From a bacterium (GTDB taxonomy: Bacteria; Patescibacteriota; Saccharimonadia; UBA4664; JBBRNT01), in the NCBI GenBank assembly GCA_043767845.1, contig JAYUFZ010000006.1, forward strand, positions 6,726-70,725: a DNA stretch of 64,000 nt, written 5' to 3'. Shown here piece by piece: positions 27,304 to 62,603 of the stretch. Position 1 is the first letter of the stretch. The number at the start of each line of letters is the position of its first letter. The position numbers and the translations under genes are program-made. The notes beneath the pieces were generated by a model. That model worked only from the letters and a program-made list of their open reading frames with translations, did no database searches and had not been told where the DNA came from.

Positions 27304-28449
27304 TTAGGGGAGCTTGAATACATCGCGTACCCGGTGCAGGCTAAAGATCGTCGCCGCTGTATGAATGGTGCCGGGTAGCGTCGATACGGCCGTAGCAAAT
27401 CCGGCCTCTCGGACCAACGCTTCAGTTGCGGCATTATAGCTACCGTAGGGATAGGCAAAGTGGCGCACTGGGTGGCCGAGTTGAGCCTCGAGCTGCGCTT
27501 TGCCCTCAAATACTTGAAAGCGCTGCATTGCTGGGGGCTGGGCGGGGAGATTGAGATGGTCGATGGTGTGGGCGGCGATAGTAATGAGTCCACTTTTGTC
27601 GAGCTCGCGCACTTGGTCCCAGGTTAAGTAGGCATCGCCACAGCCAATTGCTTGGCTGTAGTTACGTCCGGCCCCAATACAATAATTGCTAGCCGCTCCG
27701 CCTACAATAATGTAGTAGGTAGCTTTCATATTGTACTTTTTGAGCAGCCGGAAAGCTTCCATCTGGTTACCGAAGCCATCATCAAAGGTAATGACCACCG
27801 GCTTAGCTGGGAGGGCGACATCGTGTGAGTACATAGCCTGAGCGAGCATATCCAGGTCGATAGTGGTGTAGCCCTTTTGGATGAGGTCTTGGAGTTGGGC
27901 CTCGAAGTTGGCAGGAGTGTAATGGTAGATGAGGATAGGCGCTGTCAGGCTGAAGCCGTAGAGCGGTTCGACGGCAGGCGGGTTGGCGAGGCGCTCCTTA
28001 GACAAACGGGCAAGCTCGGCGCGCAAGGTATTGATTTCCGCTTGAAGGCTATTAATATCGGTCCGTGTCGACTTCAGCTCGCCGGCCTGCAGCTCAAACT
28101 GTATTTTGATGAGTTCCTGCTGCAGGCTTGAGGCGTCGACCACCCGCGTGCCGTAGCTGGTTTGCGTATCCTCGAGCTCTTTTATCTCGTTGCTCAGGCC
28201 TGCGACATCGCGCCGTAGGCCTTGGCGCACGATGCCGCTTGAATTGTCCTGCTGAACTCGTGGGGCAGTAGCAAGGTGGCTAATCTCGAAGTATAGCCCG
28301 CTGATGCAGATAATAAGTATACCGGCCACGAATGAGAACTTACTCCATAGCAGGCGGTGCTGGGCCCGGAAGTTGGCAAACTGAACCCGTAGCTGCCTTT
28401 TGGCGGCGGCCTCGAGCTGGGTCGTGGGGCGGTTTTTCTGTAATGCCAT
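27304..28449 (-). CDS. polysaccharide deacetylase (NodB homology) with N-terminal TM and coiled coil
   Basis: C-terminal domain with TFDDG and HTIDH motifs. Start placed at ATG 28449 (MALQKNRP...). The longer ORF start at 28545 would sit 9 nt from the tRNA. Confidence 0.75.
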   Translation of the reverse strand: MALQKNRPTTQLEAAAKRQLRVQFANFRAQHRLLWSKFSFVAGILIICISGLYFEISHLATAPRVQQDNSSGIVRQGLRRDVAGLSNEIKELEDTQTSYGTRVVDASSLQQELIKIQFELQAGELKSTRTDINSLQAEINTLRAELARLSKERLANPPAVEPLYGFSLTAPILIYHYTPANFEAQLQDLIQKGYTTIDLDMLAQAMYSHDVALPAKPVVITFDDGFGNQMEAFRLLKKYNMKATYYIIVGGAASNYCIGAGRNYSQAIGCGDAYLTWDQVRELDKSGLITIAAHTIDHLNLPAQPPAMQRFQVFEGKAQLEAQLGHPVRHFAYPYGSYNAATEALVREAGFATAVSTLPGTIHTAATIFSLHRVRDVFKLP

Positions 28450-28553
28450 TGTTCTCAGTTTACCTGCTGGAGCATGATACTCCAAGCCGGCAGGCATTCT
28501 GGTCTTGAGCAAAACGGCCTCCGGTGGTATGATATGCGGGTTCAAATCCAGTC

Positions 28554-28628
28554 GGTCCCATCGTCTAGGGGTTAGGACACCAGGTTTTCATCCTGGCAAC
28601 GCGGGTCCGAATCCCGCTGGGATCACCA
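28554..28628 (+). tRNA. tRNA-Glu (anticodon UUC)
   Basis: GGTCCCA acceptor, D-arm TCGTCTAGGGGTTAGGAC, anticodon loop TTTTCAT (UUC), T-arm GCGGGTCCGAATCCCGC, 3' TGGGATC-A-CCA encoded. Confidence 0.85.
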
Positions 28629-28665
28629 AAGAAATGACTCAGAGTTAGCTCTGAGTCATTTCTTT
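28629..28665. terminator. perfect 17-bp hairpin terminator directly after the tRNA
   Basis: AAAGAAATGACTCAGAG-ttagc-TCTGAGTCATTTCTTT. Confidence 0.65.
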
Positions 28666-28680
28666 GTATAGTACGAGTAC

Positions 28681-28856
28681 GGGATTCGGACCCGCGTTGG
28701 CGGGGACGGCAAAGAAGGGTAAAACCCGCTATCCCGCTGGGATCACCATACAAAAGCGCCTCACTTATGTGGGGTGTTTTTGTATGGTGTGGCTCACCGA
28801 GCCTCGGACCCGTAGGGCGCTTGCGCCCGAAGAAGGCGTAGCCGCTATCCCGCTGG
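28681..28856. repeat. tRNA-Glu-derived fragments: inverted T-arm copy, 18-bp direct repeat of the tRNA 3' end, and a third partial repeat
   Basis: 28681-28696 GGGATTCGGACCCGCG is the reverse complement of tRNA positions 28600-28615. 28731-28748 ATCCCGCTGGGATCACCA is identical to the tRNA 3' end at 28611-28628. 28842-28856 CCGCTATCCCGCTGG repeats 28726-28740. A hairpin lies between them (28745-28788, 11-bp arms). Confidence 0.6.
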
Positions 28857-29008
28857 TATTCGCAAGCGATTGGGCTGCTGGGCGATCATCCCAAGCGCCC
28901 CACAGACAATTTACTTATCTAGCTTAACCATTGTGAAATACGTTACAGCCTAACCATCTTTGCTCCTTTAAACTACTGAAGTGCGCTCAAGTAACGAGGA
29001 GGAATAGT

Positions 29009-30103
29009 ATGCATAAATTATTAAAGTACAGTGTGATTGCGGTGGCGTTGGTCAGTCTGGGGTCAGCAGGCTCAGCCCTTGCAGATAGCAATGGTAGTCA
29101 ATATGGCAATGGCCAAAACTGGTCAAGCTCATGGAACAATACCGGCTACAGTGGATCAATGAACACCACAAACCAATCAGCTGGAAGTGGCAATGCCAAC
29201 TCTAGCACTGGCTGGAACAGCTGGAACCCAACAGCTTGGCAGCAAAACGGCCAAGGCTTTGGCAACTGGTGGAATGGCTTGCTCGGCCAGATGAATCAAA
29301 ACATTGGATCATGGCACAACACCGGCAATAACACTAGCTGGTGCCCGAGTGGCGACAATTGGCAAAACAATTGGTCGAATTGGGATCCACAGATGTGGCA
29401 GCAGAACGGTTCATCGTGGGCAAACTGGTACGGCCAAATGCTCGGCCACATGACCAGTAACTACAACGGTTGGCAAAACGGCTGGAATGCTGGAAATAAC
29501 AATACAGGTAATGCCTGGAACAACGGCAACAGCGGTACCGGAGTACAAGTCTGGGGCGGTAGCGGCGCAGGTGTACAAAGTGGCAATGGCCAAGCAGGTA
29601 CCAATGCCACAATCGGCACAACTGGCCCAGGTTCCTACAATGTGATCGATACTAATCGAAACAATAGCCAATACATTGAAAACAGCAATACGGTCGCAGT
29701 CAATAATCGCAGCACCCAGGACGCCATGAGCGGCAGCGCCAACGTCAGCGGCAATACTATTGGCGGCAATGCCTCTACTGGCTCTGCCGGTAACAACAAC
29801 ACGACGGCTACCCAAGTGGCTGTCTCAAACCCGACGATGTCTGGCGGGCAAGGCACGGGGTCTAACGGTAGCGGCTACTATGCTATCGGCATAACAGGAC
29901 CAAACTCCACCAACCGTATTCAGGCGAGTGATTCGTCGAATTACTATTCGCGGACAAGCAACAATGTGCAAGTATCGAACGATAATAATCAATACGCGCA
30001 CAGCGGTAATGCCAATGTCAGCGGTAATACTATCGGTGGGAGCGCCACGAGTGGCTCAGCCTATAACAACAACTCAGCGCAAACCGGCGTACAAATCCAC
30101 TAA
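29009..30103 (+). CDS. secreted Asn/Gly/Trp/Gln-rich low-complexity repeat protein
   Basis: Signal peptide AVALVSLGSAGSALA. The first half holds W-containing short repeats (NWxxxW, WQQNG). The second half holds two long imperfect repeats (...SGSANVSGNTIGGNASTGSAGNNNT... and ...SGNANVSGNTIGGSATSGSAYNNNS...). Confidence 0.75.
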   Translation: MHKLLKYSVIAVALVSLGSAGSALADSNGSQYGNGQNWSSSWNNTGYSGSMNTTNQSAGSGNANSSTGWNSWNPTAWQQNGQGFGNWWNGLLGQMNQNIGSWHNTGNNTSWCPSGDNWQNNWSNWDPQMWQQNGSSWANWYGQMLGHMTSNYNGWQNGWNAGNNNTGNAWNNGNSGTGVQVWGGSGAGVQSGNGQAGTNATIGTTGPGSYNVIDTNRNNSQYIENSNTVAVNNRSTQDAMSGSANVSGNTIGGNASTGSAGNNNTTATQVAVSNPTMSGGQGTGSNGSGYYAIGITGPNSTNRIQASDSSNYYSRTSNNVQVSNDNNQYAHSGNANVSGNTIGGSATSGSAYNNNSAQTGVQIH

Positions 30104-30263
30104 TAATAGTGATGTAGCCTAAGTTGGCCCGATAGTTGAGGAGAAGCACCTTCTTATGAGGGTGCTTCTCTCGTTTGGCGACTATAGGATAAAGCTAATA
30201 TAACTTGCAGGCAGCGCACTGTTGTAAAGCTTGAGGAAGTAGCCTATCATAAGCGCAATAGCC

Positions 30264-31484
30264 ATGGCGAAAACAAAAGGTCACATCCATAAAGCCCATA
30301 TCGTACTCGACTACCTCGTTCTGAAGTCGGGGATAGCGCTGATGAGCTTTTTGGCGGCTTATCTCTTCCTGGCATCCTCGCCGATCCCTAAGCTTTTTGC
30401 GGCTAGCACGCCGACCATCGCTGTGCCGAGCTACTTTTACCCAGGCCCACTTTGGACGCAAATGAGCAGTGCTGGTTCAAAGGTCGGAATCGCCATTATC
30501 AACCCTAGCAGTGGCCCGGGGGGTTCGGCCGACCCGAATTATGTCGCTGCCATTAACGCTGCCCGAGCTAGGGGTATCAAGGTGCTCGGCTACGTCTCGA
30601 CTGGCTATGGAGCTAAGGGCTCTGTCTTAAGCGACATTAGCACCTACTACTCACAATATACGCTTGATGGCATATTCCTCGATGAAGGTCCGACCGACTG
30701 CGGGTTGGTCAGCCAGTACCGGGGCTATGTCGCTGCGATCCGCGCCAAGGGCGGGATAAGCGTTATCAATCCTGGTACCATGCCTCAATCGTGCTGGGGT
30801 GATGTTGGCGATACACTGATGGTTTATGAGGGCAATGCTTCATCGTACTTAGCCTTCACGCCACCGGCCTGGACCAAAAACTATCCACCGACCAAGTTCT
30901 GGCACGCTGTTTACGAAGCGTCGGCTAGCCAGCTAGCTGCTATCATGAAGCACGCATCCGATATTGACGCTGGCTACATTTATGTGACGGACGATAACAA
31001 TACGCCAGCTGCAGGCGAAACCTATGGCAACCCATACGACACACTACCGAGTTACTGGTCAGACGAAGTTGGTAGTGCAGCCACAGCGCCCACGAACCCC
31101 TCAAACCCGACCAACCCTAGCAACCCAACGAACCCAGCGCCCGTCGTACCCGATATAGTAACAAAACCAGCCGACGGTAAGAAATTCACCTGTGACGCGA
31201 CAAGTATCTCGACCCCTGGCTTGCTGGACCTACTCAAGGCTGCCGGCTGTGAGGGCAGCGATAGGAACCCGATATTTTCGCTGCTGCAAGCCGTCATTAA
31301 CTGGCTGACTGGTATTCTGGGCGGCCTGGCCGTGCTGGCTATTATTGTGGCTGGTATCCAATATATTACCTCCCAGGGCTCACCCGACGCGCTCAGGCAG
31401 GCTAAATCACGGATTACCGCGGCGGTTGTCGGTTTGATTATACTGAGTATTATGTTCTTCCTGCTCAAGCTGATCGGCATCTAA
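30264..31484 (+). CDS. spherulin-4-like (GH-like) extracytoplasmic domain fused through a PT-repeat linker to a C-terminal two-helix pilin/VirB2-like membrane hairpin
   Basis: N-terminal TM/signal, a domain with the YFYPG...W pattern of the spherulation-specific family 4, a (P-[TS]-N)x5 linker (encoded by a 15-bp tandem DNA repeat near 31093-31137), then AVINWLTGILGGLAVLAIIVAGIQYITSQGSPDALRQAKSRITAAVVGLIILSIMFFLLKLIGI. Confidence 0.7.
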   Translation: MAKTKGHIHKAHIVLDYLVLKSGIALMSFLAAYLFLASSPIPKLFAASTPTIAVPSYFYPGPLWTQMSSAGSKVGIAIINPSSGPGGSADPNYVAAINAARARGIKVLGYVSTGYGAKGSVLSDISTYYSQYTLDGIFLDEGPTDCGLVSQYRGYVAAIRAKGGISVINPGTMPQSCWGDVGDTLMVYEGNASSYLAFTPPAWTKNYPPTKFWHAVYEASASQLAAIMKHASDIDAGYIYVTDDNNTPAAGETYGNPYDTLPSYWSDEVGSAATAPTNPSNPTNPSNPTNPAPVVPDIVTKPADGKKFTCDATSISTPGLLDLLKAAGCEGSDRNPIFSLLQAVINWLTGILGGLAVLAIIVAGIQYITSQGSPDALRQAKSRITAAVVGLIILSIMFFLLKLIGI

Positions 31485-31486
31485 TA

Positions 31487-31514
31487 TTGACAGAATCCAG
31501 AAAAAGTAGATAAT
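31487..31514 (+). promoter_or_regulatory. sigma70-like promoter (TTGACA, 16-17 bp spacer, ATAATA)
   Basis: -35 TTGACA at 31487-31492. -10 (G)ATAAT(A) around 31508-31514. Predicted TSS about 31521-31524. Confidence 0.4.
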
Positions 31515-31521
31515 ACCTAGA

Positions 31522-31796
31522 GGCGCAGTAACGGCCTGGTGTCCCAGTCCCGCCCATGGTGGGGCTGCAATCAGGGTTCGATCCCCTGACCTAGCTGGCA
31601 AACGGTGATTTTGTGAAGTGCAAACGAGTGACTATGTCAACGTCGGGCACCGCTCCAGAGTCACGAGGCATAGCCCGACCCGCAACCGCGTGGTTTGTTT
31701 ACTAAGTTTTGCGCTAGGGAAGGTATTAGCTATTTGCACACCTTCCCGACCCGGTATTATGCCTAATAAAAAGCCCCAAAATCATGAGGGCTTTTT
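31522..31796 (+). ncRNA. unclassified structured small RNA, about 275 nt, between a promoter and an intrinsic terminator
   Basis: No ORF. It contains a canonical tRNA T-arm hairpin CAGGG-UUCGAUC-CCCUG (31571-31587) immediately preceded by GGGGCUG (31560-31566), a tmRNA-like 5' signature. I could not find a matching 3' acceptor/CCA domain, and the tag frame is unconvincing. Confidence 0.35.
31769..31796 (+). terminator. intrinsic terminator
   Basis: AAAAGCCC-caaaatcatga-GGGCTTTT followed by TTAT. Confidence 0.6.
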
Positions 31797-31905
31797 ATGT
31801 TCGGAAAGCAGTTTCCAGGTATTTGGGGGTTTATATCATAAGCATTTTCGGCTATACTATAAACCGAAATTATTATGCGCTATCAAACACAAATGAGGAT
31901 TACCA

Positions 31906-33318
31906 TTGCTCGCTTCCATATTCAAACGCACTAAGATTGTAGCCACCGTTGGGCCGGCGACCAGTTCTCCCGAGAAGTTGCACGCTATCATTGCAGCTGG
32001 GGTAAATGGTATCCGGCTGAATTTGTCCCATGGGACCCATGCCGAGCACTTGCAAGTCATCGAACATGTCCGGGCCATTAGCAAAAAGCTAGCCAAGCCG
32101 ATAGCCATAATCGCTGACCTCCAGGGACCAAAAATCCGCGTCGGTAAATTGCCAGCCGATGGCGTGCCGTTGATCCGCGGCCACCTGGTGAAGTTCGGCT
32201 ACAAAGCCGACTTCGAGTCGACGGCCATCATTCCTATCCAGCATGACTTTTCCGGAAATGTGGCTGGTGGCCAGACTATGTACCTCAACGATGGGCTGTA
32301 CGCCGTCGAGATCATTGAAGTTGTCGAAGGGGTGGTGATGGGTAAGGTCCAGGTGCCAGGCATTCTTACCTCGAACAAGGGCATAAACCTGCCAGATGCC
32401 GTTTTTGATGGTGATATTTTGACCAAAAAAGACATTACCGATATCGAGTTCGCTGCCGTGAACGATGTCGACTATATCGCATTATCATTCGTCCAGACCG
32501 CCAAGGATATTACCAGTCTCAAGGCCCGCTTAAAACGCCTCGGTTCCGACGCCGCCGTGATCGCCAAGATTGAAACCAAGGCCGCCGTAGCCGATCTGGA
32601 AGCAATCGTCCAGGCCAGTGATGCCGTGATGGTGGCTCGTGGTGATCTGGCTATCGAAGTGACCAATGAAGCGGTGCCGATCATCCAGCGACAGATTATC
32701 GACCTAGGCCGCCTGTACCGCAAAAATGTCATCGTGGCTACTCAAATGCTTGAATCAATGATTAGCTCCCCGCAGCCGACCCGGGCCGAGGTTAGTGACG
32801 TGGCTAATGCTGTCATGTACGGTGCCGACGCCGTAATGCTCTCCGGCGAAACGGCTATGGGCCAGTTCCCAGTCGAGACCATCGCCATGATGAAGCGGGT
32901 TATCTGCTACACCGAAGAATCCACCCTGCGCTGGCACTACGACTATAACTTCAAGATCGAACAACCCAAAAAGTATGCCGTTCCTGCCGCAGCCGTCTTG
33001 CTGGCCCGCCAGACTGACGCTTCCGTCATTATTGCCGAAACCAGCTCGGGCGCGACTGCTCGTAATATCTCCAGCTTCCGGCCGGCCGTGCCGATCATTA
33101 TGGCCACCCACAACAGACGGGTTTATAACCAACTGGCCATTGTCTGGGGTGGCAAGTCTTACTATTTCCCTAAACCGCATGGCGCCGCCGGTATTGTTAT
33201 TGAGCAGCTCAAAGTCGCCGGTAATGTGAAGCGCAAAGACGCTGTGGTGCTGGCCTACGGCCATACCCCCGGTGTATCCGGTGGTACCGATACAATCCAG
33301 CTCAAAATCGTCGAGTAA
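31906..33318 (+). CDS. pyk: pyruvate kinase
   Basis: TTG start with a TGAGGA RBS 7 nt upstream. N-terminal RTKIVATVGP and further pyruvate kinase core motifs (MVARGDLAIE, ATQMLESM). 470 aa. Confidence 0.9.
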   Translation: MLASIFKRTKIVATVGPATSSPEKLHAIIAAGVNGIRLNLSHGTHAEHLQVIEHVRAISKKLAKPIAIIADLQGPKIRVGKLPADGVPLIRGHLVKFGYKADFESTAIIPIQHDFSGNVAGGQTMYLNDGLYAVEIIEVVEGVVMGKVQVPGILTSNKGINLPDAVFDGDILTKKDITDIEFAAVNDVDYIALSFVQTAKDITSLKARLKRLGSDAAVIAKIETKAAVADLEAIVQASDAVMVARGDLAIEVTNEAVPIIQRQIIDLGRLYRKNVIVATQMLESMISSPQPTRAEVSDVANAVMYGADAVMLSGETAMGQFPVETIAMMKRVICYTEESTLRWHYDYNFKIEQPKKYAVPAAAVLLARQTDASVIIAETSSGATARNISSFRPAVPIIMATHNRRVYNQLAIVWGGKSYYFPKPHGAAGIVIEQLKVAGNVKRKDAVVLAYGHTPGVSGGTDTIQLKIVE

Positions 33319-53572: not shown

Positions 53573-54709
53573 CTACTCGGCGATGAAGTAGTCGAAGCCG
53601 ATTTGCGGATTGGGGACAGAGACTGAGGCGCCAACGATTTTATTAGCAGTATACAGCTTGAAGCCAGCACTAGTCCTGGTGATGTAATACTGCATTTGTC
53701 CCGCTTCACGGCCGACGGGTGTCAGGTTAATGCGCGGGATTTTGCTGTAGCCAGCGCCAAAGGTAACAGTTGCAAGCAGCCCGCAAGTATTAGGGTCCAC
53801 CCCAACCACGGGAGTACAGGTAGCTCCAACTCCACTATCGTTGCCGGGGGTGATAACTATGGTACCGGTCGTATCATTGCCACTGACCGACGACGTACCT
53901 GAAGTCCCAAGCGTGTTTGTATTGTAGCTCAGGCTAGGGCCTGGGCCGCCTGAAATGTAGTGGCCGTTGATGGCCAGCGGTCCATTCAGCGTGGCATTCT
54001 TGAAGTTGATAGTATTGACGGTGAGGCTCCCAGCAATCGAAGCGTTGTTTAAGACATTGAGGCTACCGCCAACAGTCAAGGCGCTCGACATAGTGACCGC
54101 GCCTTGAATACTTACGGCGCCAGCGACAGCCAGCGTACTCTTGACGCTCGTGGCATTGAGCGTGGAATTGCCTGCCACATTCAGCTCCGAAAGGCTGGTA
54201 CTGCCAGCCGTCAGTCCAGCGAGGGTTGTGGCGCTCACGACATTCAGCTTGCCGCCAATACTGGCGTCTTTATCTACCTGAATTTTATTTTTAAATTGGG
54301 TGAACGGGGCAATGATTAGCGTCCCAAAACTCTCACCTATAGTAGCCGTCTTACTGTTGAGCTTATTAATTTCTTCGACACTCAGACTTTCAGGGTTATA
54401 GCCAGTTGGCGTGACGGCTTTCTGATTCCTGGACTTCAGGATGAAATAAATTGCCGCCACATTGGCCGCTATGATAAACAGCACAATAATAACGCCGAAT
54501 ATCGTCGCCCGAGCGCTCAAGTGGATTGTGCGTTTGGGCGTCAGCGGCTTGTTGGGCGTTAAATCATGAATATTATTTGGATCAGCCTTGCCAGAATCAG
54601 CTTCGGCGAGCTTGTCACTGGCACCAGAAAGCTCAACAGCGGCTGGAGTAGCAGTAGTTTGGGGAGCGCCGTTAGGCGATTGATTCTTTTCGGGCTTGTC
54701 GTCGGCCAT
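53573..54709 (-). CDS. membrane-anchored beta-helix-repeat protein (bactofilin/adhesin-head-like repeats)
   Basis: 378 aa with a charged N-terminus, one TM, then about 200 aa of roughly 17-residue repeats with the G-x-L-x-V / A-G-x-x-S-L pattern (...ASIGGKLNVVSATTLAGLTAGSTSLSELNVAGNSTLNATSV...). Confidence 0.6.
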   Translation of the reverse strand: MADDKPEKNQSPNGAPQTTATPAAVELSGASDKLAEADSGKADPNNIHDLTPNKPLTPKRTIHLSARATIFGVIIVLFIIAANVAAIYFILKSRNQKAVTPTGYNPESLSVEEINKLNSKTATIGESFGTLIIAPFTQFKNKIQVDKDASIGGKLNVVSATTLAGLTAGSTSLSELNVAGNSTLNATSVKSTLAVAGAVSIQGAVTMSSALTVGGSLNVLNNASIAGSLTVNTINFKNATLNGPLAINGHYISGGPGPSLSYNTNTLGTSGTSSVSGNDTTGTIVITPGNDSGVGATCTPVVGVDPNTCGLLATVTFGAGYSKIPRINLTPVGREAGQMQYYITRTSAGFKLYTANKIVGASVSVPNPQIGFDYFIAE

Positions 54710-54828
54710 AGCTCACAACTGTCTCATAATAACTCTTATAATACTGGTTATGCTAGGTGTGAGCAAGCGGAGGCTATACAAGCCGCGCGGTAGTTGCGGA
54801 TCGTAGACAGATAGGGCAGTATAAGCAT

Positions 54829-55554
54829 ATGCATGTTTACAGGCGTTTTTTTGTGTGGGTGCTAGTAGGTTGGCTCGCGGTGCCAGGCCTAGTTTGGGCT
54901 GACGATTTGAAAAGTACGAATTACCAAATCCAGGAGAGTTTTGTGGGCGGTGGTGGCCGTATCGATGAAAGTTCGACAAACTTTCACGCCGCCGAATCGA
55001 TCGGCGACGCAGCTGTAGGCGATTCTGCTTCCACAAACCTACAGACGAAGTCTAGCTATACGACCACAAGTGATCCAGCGCTGACCTTCATTGTAGACAA
55101 CGGCGGGACAGTAAATTTCGGAGCGCTATCACCAACAGTCATGACCTACGCCACTTCAACCTTTCGGGTCATCAACTACACCAGCTACGGGTATCAAATA
55201 ATTATTACTGGCACCACGCCAAGCAATGGGCCCCACAGTATACCAGCACTTTCCACGCTGACGTCGCCGTCGATTGGTACCGAGCAATACGGCATAAACC
55301 TGGTGGCCAACAGCGGTTTTGGCGCCAACCCGCTCCAGGTACCATCAAGTAGCTTTAGCTATGGTGTAGCCCAGGGCCCCGACTACAACGTCGCTGACCA
55401 GTATAAGTTTGTTAGCGGCGATACTATTGCCAGCGCCCCGAAAAGCTCAGGTGAGACCGACTACACCATTTCGCATATTATTAATGTCTCGGCCCTCACC
55501 CTCGGCGGCCTGTATAGCTCCGGCCACGAACTTATCTGCATCGGCACTTATTAG
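54829..55554 (+). CDS. secreted SCPU/Csu-pilin-like protein, short paralog (P0)
   Basis: Signal peptide FVWVLVGWLAVPGLVWA. LTFIVDNGGTVNFGALSPT strand/FG motif, QYGINLV motif, and a C-terminus ...GGLYSSGHELICIGTY homologous to the ICTATF ends of the four longer paralogs. Confidence 0.65.
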   Translation: MHVYRRFFVWVLVGWLAVPGLVWADDLKSTNYQIQESFVGGGGRIDESSTNFHAAESIGDAAVGDSASTNLQTKSSYTTTSDPALTFIVDNGGTVNFGALSPTVMTYATSTFRVINYTSYGYQIIITGTTPSNGPHSIPALSTLTSPSIGTEQYGINLVANSGFGANPLQVPSSSFSYGVAQGPDYNVADQYKFVSGDTIASAPKSSGETDYTISHIINVSALTLGGLYSSGHELICIGTY

Positions 55555-55733
55555 GGATAGGGCGCAAGAGCGATAAGCCCATGGTAAGTAGTTTGACAAT
55601 GTTGTATCAACTACCACGCATATTTGTATTAATTACAACGAATCGCTATCTGATTTTTACGAAATAGCTGTTGACTGCTTTATTCCGCTAATGCTAAGCT
55701 AGTAACAGTCTATATTTGTGAATTAAGGATTTT

Positions 55734-56795
55734 ATGGCGGGTCGTCTCTCAATTCAGGGAAACCGAATTATAACCTGGACCAGTGTTTGGATTATGGCAA
55801 TTTACCTCTTTGCCCCGCTCACTGCATCCGCTGCTCAATTTACTTCGCGTAAGATTACGCTTGGCAGCTCGGCATTCTCGGCGGTAACTACCCATAAGTT
55901 TGATTTTGTCGTGCCAGTGGGCGGCGGTGGGAGCGTTGGGTCGATCCAGTTTTTGTATTGCCTCGCGGCTTCTGGTTCCTGTGTCACTCCTACAGGGTTG
56001 TCGACAACAAGTGCCACAATTTCAGCCCAGAGCGGTGCGACTGGTTTTACTATGGTTAACACCACAAATGGCGCACCCTACCTTACGCGCGCTGCCAGTG
56101 CCATTTCAGCGTCTACAGTGCTCAGCTATACGCTCGGAGTTGTTACTAACCCGAATATAGCAAATGAAACTTTTTATATTCGCATAAGTTACTTTACTGC
56201 CACGAATGCCACTGGCTCAGCACTGGATACTGGTATCGTTGCAGCCAGTACCGCTGCGCAGATTGTCGTAACAGCCCATGTCGATGAAATACTCATCTTT
56301 TGCGTTTATACTGGCGCGAATTGCGCGGCCGGCGGCACCACGGTCACGCTGGGTACTGTGACGCCTACAGTCACGGGTGTAGGTATATCCTATATGGATG
56401 CTGGTACCAATGCCGGTAGTGGCTACAGTATCCAGTACACAGCTCCAACACTGACTTCCGGTGCTAATACCATTACGGCCATCGGCACAACAGCCACTAC
56501 TTCGGTGGTTGGGACCGCCCAATTCGGTATCAATGCCACAGGGCCGAATGCCACCCCTACCGTCACTGGTTCACAAACACCAAGCGGCATCGCCCCTATC
56601 GGTAGCGCGGCAACGAATTACAATACTGCCGACAATTATGCTTTTGTTGCCAGCACGCTGACTACCGTCGCGACCTCCTCGGGTGCAGCTAACACCACCA
56701 AATTCTCTGTGTCATATCTGGCCAATGTTAACTCGTCACAAGCTGCTGGGGATTACACCTCAACCTTCACTTATATTTGTACGGCTACATTCTAA
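55734..56795 (+). CDS. secreted SCPU/Csu-pilin-like two-domain protein, paralog P1 (type A)
   Basis: AAGGA RBS 4 nt upstream. Signal peptide, conserved mature N-terminus AAQFTSRKITLGSS, Cys pairs (C-x6-C and C-x6-C), the QFGINA motif, and C-terminus AAGDYTSTFTYICTATF. About 75% identical to P4. Confidence 0.7.
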   Translation: MAGRLSIQGNRIITWTSVWIMAIYLFAPLTASAAQFTSRKITLGSSAFSAVTTHKFDFVVPVGGGGSVGSIQFLYCLAASGSCVTPTGLSTTSATISAQSGATGFTMVNTTNGAPYLTRAASAISASTVLSYTLGVVTNPNIANETFYIRISYFTATNATGSALDTGIVAASTAAQIVVTAHVDEILIFCVYTGANCAAGGTTVTLGTVTPTVTGVGISYMDAGTNAGSGYSIQYTAPTLTSGANTITAIGTTATTSVVGTAQFGINATGPNATPTVTGSQTPSGIAPIGSAATNYNTADNYAFVASTLTTVATSSGAANTTKFSVSYLANVNSSQAAGDYTSTFTYICTATF

Positions 56796-57904
56796 TGGGA
56801 AAAATCATGAACAAACAGATAGAACTCAAAAGAAAAATCTCCCAAATCGTTCTTGTCGCGATGACGCTCGCTATGCTGCCGGTCACCAATGCTTCTGCCG
56901 CCCAGATTACTGCCCGTAAACTGACGCTTGGTTCCTCGGCCTCGGCGACAGCTACTACCTATAATTTCGTGTTCACACTGCCAACAGCTACAGCCGTCAA
57001 GTCAGCGCGCTTCCAGGTTTGCTCCACGGCATCTGGCTCTTGTACTGTGCCTAATCTCTGGGCCAATACAGGCGCAACGCTTGGTAGTTTTACCAATATT
57101 GGTACCGGCTTTACTGTCGACCTGGCATCGAATGCTGACAGCTTAGGTATGACAAGCGCGGCTAACTCAACGGCACCGACGTCGCCCGTAACCGTGCAAT
57201 TCAATAATGTGACCAACCCTACTCTAACCACGCAGCCATTTAGCTTCTATGTACGGATTGCTACGTATTCATCTAATACCTATACCGGAGCGCTCGATAC
57301 TGGTGTAGTTGCGGCAGCTATCGTAAATCAGATCACGCTTACTGGTACCATGCCTGAGTCGCTCATCTTCTGTACGGGCGGCACAGTGACAGGCACTGAT
57401 TGCTCGACGGCTACGAGCGGTGCCGTGTCGTTCAACCAGTTCTTTTCACCCACAACTACCGCGACCGCGACATCGCAAATGGTTGCTTCGACTAATGCTG
57501 GTACGGGATATGTCATTACCGTGAGCGGTGCGACGATGACCTCCGGTGGTAGCACGATTACCGCCATGAGCTCATCGACAACATCTGTCATTGGTACGAG
57601 ACAATTCGGTCTCAATCTAGTCAGCAATGCTACGCCAGCAATTGGAGCCGCAGTAACCCCTGCCTCAAGCGCATCCGGCGGATCAACGCTACAAGCTAAT
57701 CCCGCTACCGGTTACGGGGCTGCCGACAACTTTAAGTTCCTAACTGGAGATACAGTAGCCAACTCGGACTTCCAAACTGGTGGCACAAATCGCGCCAGCG
57801 ACGCGCAGAATTATACTGTTTCCTACATAGTAAATGTAAATGGTAGTTTAGCCGCAGGCGTATACACGACGACGCTGTCTTACATCTGTACTGCCACATT
57901 CTAG
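56795..57904 (+). CDS. secreted SCPU/Csu-pilin-like two-domain protein, paralog P2 (type B)
   Basis: ATG 56795 overlaps the P1 stop (TAATG); alternatives are TTG 56777 and ATG 56807. Mature N-terminus AAQITARKLTLGSS, C-x6-C and C-x9-C pairs, QFGLNLV, C-terminus AAGVYTTTLSYICTATF. About 80% identical to P3. Confidence 0.7.
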   Translation: MGKIMNKQIELKRKISQIVLVAMTLAMLPVTNASAAQITARKLTLGSSASATATTYNFVFTLPTATAVKSARFQVCSTASGSCTVPNLWANTGATLGSFTNIGTGFTVDLASNADSLGMTSAANSTAPTSPVTVQFNNVTNPTLTTQPFSFYVRIATYSSNTYTGALDTGVVAAAIVNQITLTGTMPESLIFCTGGTVTGTDCSTATSGAVSFNQFFSPTTTATATSQMVASTNAGTGYVITVSGATMTSGGSTITAMSSSTTSVIGTRQFGLNLVSNATPAIGAAVTPASSASGGSTLQANPATGYGAADNFKFLTGDTVANSDFQTGGTNRASDAQNYTVSYIVNVNGSLAAGVYTTTLSYICTATF

Positions 57905-57996
57905 TCGAGCCTGATAGCGCCCTTTCAACAAAAAAGTAAATAAGTGTAAAAATCAGCTTGAAAAAGTTGTTGACATGATAATGCTAATGCTGCACA

Positions 57997-59151
57997 ATGG
58001 CATCAAGTACACAAAAAACAAAAGAACGAGCAAAACAAATGTACAAACAGAAGTCCACTAAAATACAACAGCTACAAGTTCGAATAGCCCAGATAGTTGT
58101 TATTGTCTTGGGCTTTAGTCTGTTGCCGTTATCCACGGCTCAAGCTGCGCAAATTACTGCTCGTAAACTAACGCTCGGTTCGTCCGCATCTGCCGCAGCA
58201 ACAACCTATAGTTTCCAATATACCCTGCCGACAGGCACGGCGGTTAAATCGGTGCGCTACCAGTTTTGTACACTTGCATCTGGTGCCTGCACAGTTCCTG
58301 GATCGTGGGTAAATACTGGCGCTACCCTCACAAGCTTTACCAATATCGGGACTGGCTTCGCTGTGGACTTAGCAACCAACGCCGATAGTCTCGGCATGAC
58401 CAGCGCGGCAAATTCTACAGCTCCGTCGTCCCCAGTGTCCGTACAGTTTAGCAATGTGACAAACCCTACCTCTGTCACTCAACCATTTAGCTTCTATGTA
58501 CGCATCTTCACCTACTCAACAAACACATACACCGGCGCACTTGACAGCGGCGTTGTCGCAGCGGCAATCAATCAACAAATAACTTTGACCGGCACCATGC
58601 CCGAATCACTCGTCTTTTGTACCGGTGCTACCGTCACAGGTACGGACTGTACAACTGCAACCTCTGGAGCAATAAGTTTCGGGACACTCTTCTCTCCAAC
58701 ATCAACATCCGTCACAACGTCGCAAATGGTAGCCTCAACAAATGCCGGGACAGGATATGTTATCACGGTCAACGGCGCGACAATGACATCTGGTGGTAAT
58801 ACCATAGCTGCTATGGGCTCGACTACTACTTCTCAACTCGGCGTCAGCCAGTTCGGTCTCAACCTAGTAGTCAATACTGTACCGTCGGTCGGGACAGCTA
58901 TTGCGCCAACGTCTAGTGCCCTAGGTGGTTCTACGCTTCAAGCTAATCCTTCAAGTAACTACGGCACAGCCGACAACTTCAAATTCACCAGCGGTGACAC
59001 TATAGCCAACTCAGACTTCCAAACTGGTGGTACAAACCGAGCAACAGATGCCCAAAACTATACCATTTCCTACATCGTGAATGTCCCAGGTAGCCAGGGA
59101 GCAGGTACCTATACGACAACCCTGACCTACATTTGTACAGCCACTTTCTAA
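57997..59151 (+). CDS. secreted SCPU/Csu-pilin-like two-domain protein, paralog P3 (type B)
   Basis: Same architecture as P2. A possible promoter (TTGACA -17- CACAAT, 57970-57998) would favour the internal ATG 58039 (MYKQKST...) as the real start. Confidence 0.7.
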   Translation: MASSTQKTKERAKQMYKQKSTKIQQLQVRIAQIVVIVLGFSLLPLSTAQAAQITARKLTLGSSASAAATTYSFQYTLPTGTAVKSVRYQFCTLASGACTVPGSWVNTGATLTSFTNIGTGFAVDLATNADSLGMTSAANSTAPSSPVSVQFSNVTNPTSVTQPFSFYVRIFTYSTNTYTGALDSGVVAAAINQQITLTGTMPESLVFCTGATVTGTDCTTATSGAISFGTLFSPTSTSVTTSQMVASTNAGTGYVITVNGATMTSGGNTIAAMGSTTTSQLGVSQFGLNLVVNTVPSVGTAIAPTSSALGGSTLQANPSSNYGTADNFKFTSGDTIANSDFQTGGTNRATDAQNYTISYIVNVPGSQGAGTYTTTLTYICTATF

Positions 59152-59204
59152 AAGCCAAAACTGTCCACTAAAAGTCCGAAAAACCCCAAAACAAAACGAA
59201 AACA

Positions 59205-60269
59205 ATGAAAACTACAAAATCAAAAATCAATCGAATAGACCGCATCAGGCACATCCTCGCCAAAATATTGATAGCGGCTACTATCATCGGGCTCACCCCC
59301 TTAACTGCCCAAGCTGGTTTCCAACCCAGGTCAGTATTACTCGGTAGTTCAGCTATATCAGTAGTAACGACTCATAGGTTTTCACTCACAGCCATTAATG
59401 GTGGTAGTGTTGGTTCAATCCAGTTTCTGTACTGCACCAGTGCTTCGGGGACTTGCACGACGCCTACTGGACTTTCGACTACCAGCGCGACCTTATCAGC
59501 GCAGTCCGGTGCTACCGGCTTCACCATGACGAATACCACCAATGGCGCACCATATATCACGCGAGCAGCATCAAGTATCACGGCGTCAACACCAATCAGC
59601 TATACGCTGGGTGTCATTACCAACCCATCAACCACCAATACCAGCTTCTTCATCCGCATTTCAACCTTTACTGCTACCAACGCCACGGGTTCGGCACTCG
59701 ATGCCGGTGTCGTGGCGGCCAGCACTGCAGCTCAGGTAGTGGTCAACGCCCATGTCGATGAGATTATCACCTTCTGTGTATACACTGGCGCCAACTGTGC
59801 TGCCGCTGGAGCAACTGTCGACCTAGGTACACTCACACCAACGACGACCGGCGTCGGCGTATCGTACATGGACGCTGGTACCAATGCTGGCAGCGGCTTC
59901 GCAGTCCAATACAACGGTCCGACGCTGACCTCCGGTGGTAACACGATCAGCTCGATCGGAGGCACTGCCACCACCTCGACAGTTGGGCTCGCCCAGTTTG
60001 GTATCAATGCCACTGGTACAAACGCCACTCCAGCCGTGACCGGCTCACAGACTCCGAGTGGTGTTGCGCCAATCGGCAGCGCCGCAACGAACTACGACGT
60101 CGCCGATACCTATGCTTTCGTGGCTAGTACGCCCACAACGCTGGCTACATCAAGCGGGGCCGCTAATACTACGAAGTATTCAGTCTCTTACGTATCAAAC
60201 ATCAACTCCTCCCAGGCCGCCGGTGATTACACGACAACAATTACTTACATCTGCACTGCTACTTTCTAG
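59205..60269 (+). CDS. secreted SCPU/Csu-pilin-like two-domain protein, paralog P4 (type A)
   Basis: Same architecture as P1. C-terminus AAGDYTTTITYICTATF. Confidence 0.7.
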   Translation: MKTTKSKINRIDRIRHILAKILIAATIIGLTPLTAQAGFQPRSVLLGSSAISVVTTHRFSLTAINGGSVGSIQFLYCTSASGTCTTPTGLSTTSATLSAQSGATGFTMTNTTNGAPYITRAASSITASTPISYTLGVITNPSTTNTSFFIRISTFTATNATGSALDAGVVAASTAAQVVVNAHVDEIITFCVYTGANCAAAGATVDLGTLTPTTTGVGVSYMDAGTNAGSGFAVQYNGPTLTSGGNTISSIGGTATTSTVGLAQFGINATGTNATPAVTGSQTPSGVAPIGSAATNYDVADTYAFVASTPTTLATSSGAANTTKYSVSYVSNINSSQAAGDYTTTITYICTATF

Positions 60270-60286
60270 CCCGCAACAAAAACTAG

Positions 60287-60316
60287 TTTACAGGACTAGC
60301 TCTCCACGGCTATAAT
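60287..60316 (+). promoter_or_regulatory. strong sigma70-like promoter (TTTACA -18- TATAAT) giving a near-leaderless transcript
   Basis: -10 TATAAT ends at 60316 and the ATG of the next gene is at 60324. No room for a Shine-Dalgarno sequence. Confidence 0.45.
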
Positions 60317-60323
60317 AGCCTTA

Positions 60324-61349
60324 ATGCTTAAACGTTTTTCCGCACTTACTTTGGTGCTTTGCCAAACAATGCTTTTCGTTATTGCGCCGATAGCCAATGC
60401 CGCAAGTGCTGCTACCAATAGTGGGCAGGGGATAGAGCTTTCTCCGCCAGTTATCGAGATTAAGGCCGATCCTGGCCAGATCGTTACTGGCGAAATTAAG
60501 CTGCGCAATATTACCAAGAACGACCTAATAGCCAAAAGTAAAGTTGACGATTTCGCGGCCAAAGGTGAAGACGGCCAGCCCCAAATCCTGCTTGACGAAA
60601 CGACAACAACTCGCTTTTCACTCAAGACCTGGATCCAGCCAATAGCTAATCTGCGATTAGCTCCCCAGAAGATAGAAACCATCAAGTTCAGTATTAATGT
60701 GCCTCGTAATGCTGAGCCCGGCGGGCATTTTGGCGTCATCCGCTTTACCGCGCAGCCTCCAGAGCTGGAGGGGACCGGGGTGGCACTATCCGCTAGTATA
60801 GGCTCTTTAATTCTGCTCAATGTATCCGGTGACGCCAAGGAGGGGGCTAGTATCGCAAGCTTTAAGGTCGCCCAAATTACGACAGGTTGGGAAAAAGTTA
60901 TCAGGGGTGACGGCGGTCTGGATGTCGGCCTGCAAGACGGTAGCTTTTTCGAGTATGGCCCGGTCCGCTTCACTACGCGTGTCAAAAACGAGGGGAATGT
61001 GCAGGTCAAGCCAGTCGGCACGATAGATGTGTTCAATATTTTCGGTATGAAAGTCGCTAGTCTCAAGATGAACGATCCTGCCCGCAACGTTTTGCCGGAG
61101 AGTATTCGTAAGTTTGACACCGATTGGAAGCAACACTGGCTCATCGGCTACTTCAAGGCCAGGGCCAACCTAACCTATGGTGCCTCAAACAAAGCCCTTA
61201 TTAGCTCGACAGTTGGCTTCTGGGTAGTTCCTTACAAGCTCATTGCATTAATAGTACTCGGCCTCATTCTGCTGCTCATCGTCATGCGTAGCGCCCTACG
61301 TCGTTACAACCGCTACATCATCGCCCAAGCCCGCAAACATCGTCGCTAG
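60324..61349 (+). CDS. signal-peptide protein with Ig/PapD-chaperone-like N-domain and C-terminal TM + Arg-rich tail (DUF916/CscA-like architecture)
   Basis: Signal peptide LVLCQTMLFVIAPIANAASA. The N-terminal pattern GIELSPPVIEIKADPGQIVTGEIKLRN ... WIQPIANLRLAPQKIETIKFSI resembles pilus-chaperone strands. C-terminus LIALIVLGLILLLIVMRSALRRYNRYIIAQARKHRR. Confidence 0.6.
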   Translation: MLKRFSALTLVLCQTMLFVIAPIANAASAATNSGQGIELSPPVIEIKADPGQIVTGEIKLRNITKNDLIAKSKVDDFAAKGEDGQPQILLDETTTTRFSLKTWIQPIANLRLAPQKIETIKFSINVPRNAEPGGHFGVIRFTAQPPELEGTGVALSASIGSLILLNVSGDAKEGASIASFKVAQITTGWEKVIRGDGGLDVGLQDGSFFEYGPVRFTTRVKNEGNVQVKPVGTIDVFNIFGMKVASLKMNDPARNVLPESIRKFDTDWKQHWLIGYFKARANLTYGASNKALISSTVGFWVVPYKLIALIVLGLILLLIVMRSALRRYNRYIIAQARKHRR

Positions 61350-61494
61350 TATAGCCCTGTTTCTGATCTTAATTATTTATGAGTCCTGACTACTCAAGTT
61401 ATTTATAGAAGGGCAAAAGTAGAAATACCAACAATAGGTGATAAGAAAGGTGGTGTGATAGGGCGATATGGGCCAGCCTTTCCAGGTGTACATC

Positions 61495-61527
61495 GATGGG
61501 GCGGTGTGTATCTGATGCCCCATTTCC
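61495..61527 (+). terminator. weak hairpin, possible terminator
   Basis: GATGGGGC-(14-nt loop)-GCCCCATT, followed by only a short T run. Confidence 0.3.
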
Positions 61528-61595
61528 GTCTGCCGTTACCCATTCAAGATTGTTAAGCTTAGTGCTATAATAATTCTAACCAAAAGTAAACAAAA

Positions 61596-62603
61596 ATGGT
61601 TATCCAAACAAAGATCCTACATCACCAGCACAGTGGCAAGCTTAAGCCCCACCGCCACACCTCATACGCGGGGTTATTTTTCATGCTCATGCTCTGCGGT
61701 CTTGCCTTGCTCACAATTACCCAGGCCACTTATGGCGCCCATCCCGACCCTGGCATCGGCACTATCGGTCTTAAGGGTGTTGTCCCCGGCAAAGCACCGA
61801 CTGTGGCGGCCGTTATCAACAGCCCACGCAATGGGACGCGCTTTACTACGATTCCCGTACCGGTGACTGGGACATGCCCACAAAATACCATAGTTGAGAT
61901 ATTCAAAAACGGTATTTTTGCCGGCTCAGATTATTGTAAGGATGATCAAACTTTTTCGATCCAAGTTGACTTGTTGATAGGGGCCAACGACGTTGTGGCT
62001 AAGGTCTTCGATGCCCTCGACCAGGCTGGTCCAGATTCAAACACCATTACTCTGTACTACGATGTGCAGCCGGCGGCGCCATTATTTGTGCTATCAGCGC
62101 CAAATGCTCTACCCGACGATTATCAGCAATTCGTTTTACGTACCAACGCGGTGTACCGTGGCTCATTTGCCGGCGACCCGGTGAAAGTGGTTATTGACGT
62201 TATAGGCGGTATAGCACCATACGCATTAATTATCGACTGGGGTGATGGTAAGACTGACCTCGTAAGCCGCGAAAATAAAGAGAGCTTTACAACTGAGCAT
62301 ATCTTCGGCAAACCGGGTGTCTACCAGGCCATCATCAAGGGAACTGATTCCAAAAATAAAACTGCCTATCTGCAAACCACAATCCTGGTCAATGGCCAAT
62401 CCGACTTGGCCGCCGGCACCACTGTCACTACGACGGCAACGGCAACCAAGAGCTTGCTACTAGCCTGGCCAATGTGGATCCTACTTTTCCTAGTCTTTAT
62501 TAGCTTCTGGCTTGGAGAACGGCACGAAAAAACAGTGCTACGTCGCCGCGGCCAATTGGTGACGGCCAACAGTGGCATGAAAGCTGGTCCCACGAAAGCC
62601 TAA
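61596..62603 (+). CDS. double-anchored extracytoplasmic protein with PKD-like domain
   Basis: Promoter TTCAAG -17- TATAAT at 61543-61571. N-terminal TM, IIDWGDGKTD (PKD WxxGDG-like) segment, Thr-rich stalk, and a C-terminal TM (LLLAWPMWILLFLVFISFWL). Confidence 0.6.
   Translation: MVIQTKILHHQHSGKLKPHRHTSYAGLFFMLMLCGLALLTITQATYGAHPDPGIGTIGLKGVVPGKAPTVAAVINSPRNGTRFTTIPVPVTGTCPQNTIVEIFKNGIFAGSDYCKDDQTFSIQVDLLIGANDVVAKVFDALDQAGPDSNTITLYYDVQPAAPLFVLSAPNALPDDYQQFVLRTNAVYRGSFAGDPVKVVIDVIGGIAPYALIIDWGDGKTDLVSRENKESFTTEHIFGKPGVYQAIIKGTDSKNKTAYLQTTILVNGQSDLAAGTTVTTTATATKSLLLAWPMWILLFLVFISFWLGERHEKTVLRRRGQLVTANSGMKAGPTKA

Follow-up and report, generated by a model that had tools for sequence, protein, structure and literature searches.

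A possible worn-down att scar made of miniature units behind a tRNA-Glu gene of a Saccharimonadia bacterium

The window, i.e., the whole 64 kb stretch of DNA analysed here, carries a single tRNA gene called by ARAGORN and Rfam, an intact tRNA-Glu(UUC) with an encoded CCA at 28554-28628 on the + strand. The gene corresponds to one ARAGORN call, tRNA-Glu(ttc), and to an Rfam tRNA score of 59.4 bits against a threshold of 29, in agreement with an earlier note on this DNA that had described it as intact. Its promoter, found by a promoter scan, is predicted at 28505-28533 on the same strand (TTGAGC-17-TATGAT with a TG extension). A counterpart is kept in contig L005 of the closest relative (85% over 40 nt), and by eye the promoters before the tRNA in two other relatives, L002 (TTGATC-17-TATCGT) and L007 (TTGAGT-17-TATCGT), resemble that of the window. 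In L005 (27-230), about 165 extra nt lie between the promoter and the tRNA relative to the window.

The first copy of a core sequence, ATCCCGCTGGGATCACCA (28611-28628, + strand), is made up of the final 18 nt of the tRNA. It starts with the last two bases of the T-loop, ends with the CCA and includes the dyad ATCCC-GCT-GGGAT. The second copy lies at 28731-28748 on the + strand and is identical to the first at 18/18 positions, so that the exact 18-bp direct repeat of the tRNA 3' end, CCA included, is found as the earlier note had reported it. The core has just these two sites in the 64 kb, even when three mismatches are allowed, against a chance expectation of 0.08, and two sites were obtained in 0/100 shuffles. 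A third, decayed copy, ATCCCGCTGGTATTCGCA, is located at 28847-28864 (+ strand); 14 of its 18 positions are identical to the core, and 28847-28859 match the tRNA at 12/13. Taken alone, this copy is not above chance (score of 21 against a median best shuffle score of 20). It stands in register with copies 1 and 2, with spacings of 120 and 116 nt, and CCGCT precedes both copy 2 and copy 3, which extends the similarity to a 15-nt match, CCGCTATCCCGCTGG. The third partial repeat of 15 bp that had been proposed is thus retained for its register and its extended match, and not for its own similarity to the core, which is no better than that of shuffled sequence. The distances between the repeats, 102 and 98 nt, are free of ORFs.

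Two strong hairpins sit among the repeats, again as first described. Hairpin H1 (28627-28666, + strand) has 18 perfect pairs and a terminator-like form, with an A-tract, a stem and a T-tract, and folds at -27.3 kcal/mol (z = -8.5 against shuffles). Hairpin H2 (28744-28789, + strand) has 21 pairs and is far stronger on the + strand (-34.4 kcal/mol, z = -9.8) than on the - strand (-22.0 kcal/mol), because three of the pairs are G-U on the + strand. No sequence similarity is detectable between H1 and H2 (p = 0.95). Neither was listed by a scan with a terminator consensus, their T-runs being placed within long stems; what fits terminators is their position, their succession of A-tract, stem and T-tract, and their homology to the terminators of relatives.

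Downstream of H1 lies an inverted copy of tRNA positions 44-63 (28680-28704, - strand), exact at 20/20 positions over 28680-28699 and 92% identical over 25 nt. The inverted T-arm copy of the earlier note is therefore real and longer than the 16 bp assigned to it. It takes part with H1 in an imperfect palindrome of 103 nt (28597-28699), in which 20 outer and 18 inner base pairs are perfect, and the 10-13 nt between both perfect segments differ completely. A decayed inverted T-arm-like segment recurs at 28795-28812 (- strand), where it is 78% complementary to tRNA positions 28602-28619 of the window. Regarding the spacers, E1 (28686-28730, + strand) consists of TCGGACCCG (28686-28694), N17, AAGAAGG (28712-28718), N7 and CCGCT (28726-28730), while E2 (28804-28846, + strand) consists of TCGGACCCG (28804-28812), N17, AAGAAGG (28830-28836), N5 and CCGCT (28842-28846), i.e., the shared formula TCGGACCCG-N17-AAGAAGG-N5/7-CCGCT. 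In local alignment of E1 with E2, 20/2000 shuffles were equally good (p ~0.01). Both junctions into the core are identical, CCGCT running directly into ATCCCGCTGG.

Altogether, two and a half tandem units of about 118 bp (120 and 116 nt) are found behind the tRNA-Glu, each in the order 18-nt core, terminator-like hairpin, TTTGTATRGT, inverted T-arm-like segment, shared blocks and next core. The tRNA-derived pieces match at 38/38 positions in unit 1 against 28/36 at the end of unit 2, decay being greater farther from the tRNA. When the spacers, the region after copy 3 and the small-RNA locus described below were compared by BLAST with 130 loci and the window, only T-arm matches were returned, and hence there is no evidence of a dispersed repeat or MITE family. 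Two further candidates were discarded: a spacer plus core as a pseudo-tRNA (a weak minus-strand tRNA-Sec match, 18 bits, E = 4.9) has no acceptor 5' strand, and for a Casposon-like or CRISPR-like target duplication there are neither terminal inverted repeats nor Cas1 here.

Logan contigs of the window's species and of a related species break inside the tRNA, as they might if the arrangement had arisen by misassembly where co-occurring species share the same tRNA. Such an artefact is extremely unlikely, since L001, a k=31 unitig that was assembled independently, agrees with the window base for base from 28605 onward and passes unbroken from the T-loop through the units into the genes for pyruvate kinase (PK), PGK and TIM, every repeat being shorter than k. 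The arrangement is therefore not peculiar to one assembly.

The genes on either side of the locus are kept across the group, with a histidine kinase, a response regulator and a polysaccharide deacetylase on one side, PK, PGK and TIM on the opposite side, and the tRNA-Glu between both blocks. It had been proposed in the earlier note to look for an empty site at the same tRNA-Glu in relatives, on the understanding that repeats present in all of them would speak against integration scars. In a scan of a genome collection, the sole species genome with the 29-nt 3' part of the tRNA was L002, a Candidatus Saccharimonadia MAG, and the protein relatives of the window genes are likewise labelled Saccharimonadia. 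In L002 the tRNA is identical at 75/75 positions and is followed by a single terminator and then by the next gene, PK being 61% identical. Nine related Saccharimonadia tRNA-Glu loci each have a single tRNA, with fragment repeats in 0/9, and no tRNA fragments occur within 6 kb of the tRNA-Glu in L002, L007, L122, L123 and L124. In four metagenome contigs (L022, L032, L057 and L075) the tRNA is identical at 74/75 positions and present in one copy each. By sequence comparison, the L002 locus is an empty site and the repeats are private to the window's lineage; far from being shared by all relatives, they are absent from the nine related loci, and consequently are not a conserved RNA.

This distribution bears on the view that the region is a functional element, either tandem terminators insulating the downstream gene or an RNA. 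A minus-strand RNA would be complementary over 18 nt to the 3' end of the tRNA-Glu; in a plus-strand RNA, the T-arm could pair with its inverted copy in a long helix. Taken as a whole, the region folds much more stably than shuffled sequence does (z = -9 and -12), the G-U pairs of H2 are kept solely on the + strand, and sequence blocks are conserved at fixed spacing, all of which would be in keeping with a function. Nevertheless, such a function appears very unlikely given that the element is absent from every relative examined, that E1 and E2 fold like shuffles (z = -1.2 and +0.2), and that no Rfam family is matched beyond the tRNA itself.

The relatives also indicate which of the terminators is the older. 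In L123 and L124, the terminators native to the tRNA-Glu can be aligned with H2 and about 15 nt beyond it (p <= 0.001), and H2 is on this alignment orthologous to the native terminator of relatives and the ancestral terminator of the window tRNA-Glu. The native 3' end has therefore been displaced: core 2 and H2 are taken to be the original 3' end and terminator, ahead of which H1, E1 and a core were inserted, and it follows from the orthology that about 120 bp were inserted with an 18-bp target duplication. The orthology covers copy 2 only, and nothing terminator-like follows copy 3. A likeness to the terminator native to the tRNA-Glu of L123 is seen for H1 as well (p = 0.001).

The 3' flank of the tRNA is variable within the group, lineage-specific genes being found there in L007, L122, L123 and the window. 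Contigs L032 and L075 are near-identical upstream and through the tRNA and diverge about 15 nt after the CCA; higher-GC DNA lies on the 3' side of the tRNA in L075 and L057. The closest relative is the organism of L005 and L121 (PK 86% in L121); its contigs L005 and L006 stop inside the tRNA, and L121 begins inside the pilin gene. Look-ups with the deacetylase, the N/W-rich protein and the pilin-fusion protein of the window returned L001 only or nothing. When 27304-33318 of the window is set against the relatives, the tRNA together with the block of genes on its 3' side is found in both orientations between the deacetylase and PK: the tRNA adjoins the deacetylase in the window, L005 and L123, and adjoins PK in L002, L007, L122 and L124. 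End-points of an inversion could not be mapped. In Thermococcales, the pTN3 integrase brings about inversion between inverted tRNA-derived att sites (PMC5495485). The present locus is similar in having an inverted tRNA fragment beside the tRNA and, among relatives, a tRNA plus 3' cargo block in either orientation, but differs in that the window has no integrase and the inverted piece, of 20 nt, is separated by 63 nt from its partner. An integrase-driven inversion between att sites may be related to the inverted fragment.

A duplication is also seen at the other end of the gene. In L123 (1100-1186) and L007 (5830-6025), the tRNA leader with the first 8 nt of the tRNA-Glu (GGTCCCAT), then ACTTTGT..., occurs a second time, 68 nt ahead of the real tRNA in L123 and 161 nt ahead of it in L007. 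The two leader duplicates are homologous, 0/1000 shuffles being equally good, and give the impression that sequence was inserted or replaced at the gene's 5' end. A junction motif shared by unit 1 and the upstream insert of L123, CTTTGTATAG, has p = 0.02 before multiple-test correction and is not relied on.

How the units arose can be considered with or without a recombinase. Local replication errors would need none: a foldback or template switch at the terminator palindrome would have copied the T-arm in reverse, and unequal exchange between short repeats would then have duplicated the core-terminator-spacer unit in place. H1 indeed centres the 103-nt palindrome, the two units are of almost equal size, both hairpins belong to the native terminator family, and there is neither an integrase nor cargo between the repeats. 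This explanation is nevertheless rather unlikely, as the unselected core 2 is still identical at every position while any similarity of H1 to H2 is lost; that the core is intact between unrelated flanks argues against an old neutral tandem duplicate. The wholly different 10-13 nt between the perfect segments of the palindrome fit poorly with a simple foldback, no trace of the units is seen in relatives, and decay grows with distance from the tRNA, where copies born of a single duplication would be equal in age.

Alternatively, DNA taken up from another Saccharimonadia species could have recombined at the locus, the identical tRNA serving as a homologous anchor and the other end being joined at the 18-nt core, so that the insert would be the donor's terminator and downstream sequence. 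The near-identity of the tRNA in distant relatives (74-75 of 75 positions, even where PK is 61% identical, as in L002), the breaks of Logan contigs within the tRNA, which are ascribed to a relative of the window's species that was assembled from SRR23617225 as well, and the likeness of H1 to the native terminator of L123 would all suit such an exchange, in which E1 and E2 would be orthologous downstream sequences. The two junctions, however, fall at exactly the same base (CCGCT, then AT), which points to a site-specific rather than an illegitimate join, and an E-like module after the terminator occurs in none of the relatives examined; recombination between species is thus improbable.

The reading favoured here, to which about an even chance is given, is that the repeats are decayed att-type scars of serial site-specific insertions at the tRNA-Glu 3' end. 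A displaced tRNA 3' fragment is the standard mark of an attR, repeated integration gives tandem arrays, and a block of identity from the T-loop to the CCA is the classic trace of integrases that target tRNA 3' ends (PMC9897764; PMC7192596). At the present locus, the identity of both junctions favours a site-specific join, the three spacer blocks at fixed spacing (N17 in both) have the look expected of related attP arms, and the rise in decay with distance, from 38/38 to 28/36, is what serial integration beside the tRNA predicts. The empty site in L002, the displaced native terminator and the variable 3' flank in the group count in its favour as well. The agency of a recombinase, and the former presence of larger elements between the repeats, are both what we infer from this pattern.

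By this account of serial insertion, a site-specific recombinase, most likely of the tyrosine integrase type that uses the part of tRNA genes from the T-loop to the 3' end, would have joined incoming DNA to the tRNA within the core. The incoming DNA would have brought its own copy of the core and the terminator H1, leaving the tRNA intact, and the old 3' end with its native terminator (core 2 and H2) would have been moved about 120 bp downstream. Core 3 would be the leftover of an earlier event of the same kind, and the scar closest to the tRNA the youngest. The element bodies and any integrase gene would since have been lost, about 100 bp of arm sequence being left per event.

Several features sit uneasily with att scars. 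Both elements would need to have shrunk to about 100 bp; an attP core should mimic the half-site of the tRNA, which the sequence just left of the core does not resemble; foreign arms would not be expected to look like native Saccharimonadia terminators, as H1 and H2 do; an exact inverted copy of the T-arm is no usual part of an att site; relatives with variable 3' cargo show no att repeats; and an integrase, a gene between the repeats and a matching attP are all missing. Integration followed by excision, moreover, leaves no scar. The repeated integration and excision put forward in the earlier note hence carries over in its first half, serial insertion, at the even chance given above, while excision has to be replaced by loss of the element bodies.

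P4-type integrases leave 16-20-bp repeats of tRNA 3' ends, e.g., at leuX, selC and asn in enterobacterial pathogenicity islands. Like tRNA-integrated islands of this kind, the locus has an intact tRNA, then a direct 18-bp copy of its 3' end (T-loop to CCA), and an empty site in relatives. Unlike them, the window has no integrase, about 100 bp of gene-free sequence separates the repeats, and all repeats lie within 300 bp, before the neighbouring genes and not around them. With regard to the logic of Islander mapping (PMC7192596), an intact tRNA and a displaced direct fragment are present whereas an integrase and 2 kb of cargo are absent; with regard to attR fragments (discussed in PMC9897764), an empty site in relatives and native downstream sequence (copy 2) are present and an attP is absent. 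Another parallel is offered by tandem IGE arrays and their degraded forms (PMC7192596), in which att cores likewise follow in series 3' of one tRNA or tmRNA gene with the older copies farther away and more decayed, although the known units are multi-kb each and carry an integrase, as opposed to units of about 118 bp in the window.

The earlier note had already seen no integrase in the window, and a motif search and Pfam scans of 20 window ORFs were both negative. The search it proposed for elements carrying the 18-bp core gave none in the data covered: no attP partner was detected in viral contigs or in 110 metagenome loci with the 18-mer, and in none of these metagenome loci does CCGCT stand ahead of the core. 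Two viral 18-mer matches considered as attP were both complete tRNA-Glu genes inside phage tRNA arrays, and viral matches to the arm blocks or to arm-plus-core patterns were due to chance, inside coding sequence.

Neither do the repeats enclose a multi-gene cargo of at least 2 kb, and up to 32000 no further tRNA fragment closes an island before PK. The two downstream genes that had been regarded as possible remaining cargo, an N/W-rich gene (29009-30103) and a Spherulin4-pilin fusion gene (30264-31484), both lie to the right of all three repeats, and the pilin C-terminal gene is common to the closest relative. There (L121), the pilin C-terminal gene likewise stands side by side with the small-RNA gene and PK, and because of this conserved neighbourhood it and the small RNA near 31500 are regarded as residents and not as recent cargo. 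Nothing marks the locus of that small RNA, likened to a second integration hotspot in the earlier note, as a site of integration. The protein encoded at 29009-30103 is an N/W/G/S-rich secreted protein with no Pfam family. The full architecture of the other, a Spherulin4 domain fused to a T4SS-pilin C-terminal domain, is without a close homologue; the best homologue of the Spherulin4 domain shows 49% identity across 56% of the protein, and the source-named Spherulin4 matches are few and all from non-CPR taxa. The Spherulin4 domain may have been acquired, with no link to the repeats.

The small-RNA locus itself, at 31487-31800, has a strong promoter (TTGACA-16-GATAAT) followed by a non-coding RNA of about 270 nt that ends at a terminator, with a closing helix GGCGCAG/UUGCGCU and a T-arm-like hairpin, CAGGGTTCGATCCCCTG. 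It is kept in L121 (205-490) with 79% identity, where one hairpin is swapped for a different one and 5/46 predicted pairs are compensatory; neither an Rfam family nor an ARAGORN call was obtained for it. Elsewhere in the window, a run of seven ORFs of 335-384 aa without Pfam match extends over 53573-62603, and the GC skew turns negative across the stretch that holds it.

A variant of the insertion reading holds the units of about 118 bp to be complete non-autonomous mini-elements, acted on in trans by a recombinase from elsewhere, but it is judged very improbable. Each cassette would then supply a new 3' end for the tRNA together with a terminator, and its short arm would hold the inverted T-arm and recombinase-binding blocks, the latter corresponding to the formula shared by the spacers. 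Arrays of tRNA-Glu fragments and terminators with a period of about 102 nt, found in unrelated phyla, would be the same phenomenon.

Such arrays were observed in tandem after an intact tRNA-Glu(CUC) in unrelated contigs (L056:5900-6290, L065:476-860, L034:1-181, L118 and L066), their unit being a 5'-truncated tRNA-Glu(UUC)-like copy with its own terminator; in L063 (3385-3560) and L087 (474-600) the same kind of unit follows a bare 3' fragment and no intact tRNA was called. The window resembles them in that the same 18-nt 3' end recurs, copies are followed by their own terminator and the period is near 100 nt. Their units are about 90% alike and hold some 60 nt of directly oriented tRNA sequence, whereas in the window the direct part is just 18 nt long, an inverted T-arm piece is added, and the units otherwise differ. 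Ten ORFs adjacent to the arrays were checked and included no integrase; one array is followed by a type I restriction methylase gene. Other oddities were met in the same contig collection. In L021, L035, L053, L072, L094 and L103, tRNA-Glu-like sequences carry a hairpin insertion of about 19 nt in the T-loop, of the form GGGTTCG[TTAGCC...GGCT.ATAAA]AATCCCGC. In more than 10 contigs (L019, L026, L028, L033, L047, L098, L100, L120 and others), TAAAATCAGGCGGAATACGCTC is fused to the 3' half of tRNA-Glu(CUC) from the anticodon loop on, and this fusion may be the attP or attR of a family of elements that targets the anticodon loop.

As it stands, the locus is best read as a decayed att scar at a tRNA gene, unusual in being built of miniature units. 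No new mechanism is revealed by it, this type of scar being well known and ordinary. Should the reading as att scars be true, it would bear the trace of DNA once inserted site-specifically at a tRNA gene of a Saccharimonadia (CPR) genome, in a window without an integrase, and the 3' flank of the tRNA-Glu would be a variable spot between two conserved gene blocks. It could then be of use for mapping gene gain in reduced genomes, and would warn annotators of the tRNA fragments that occur here.
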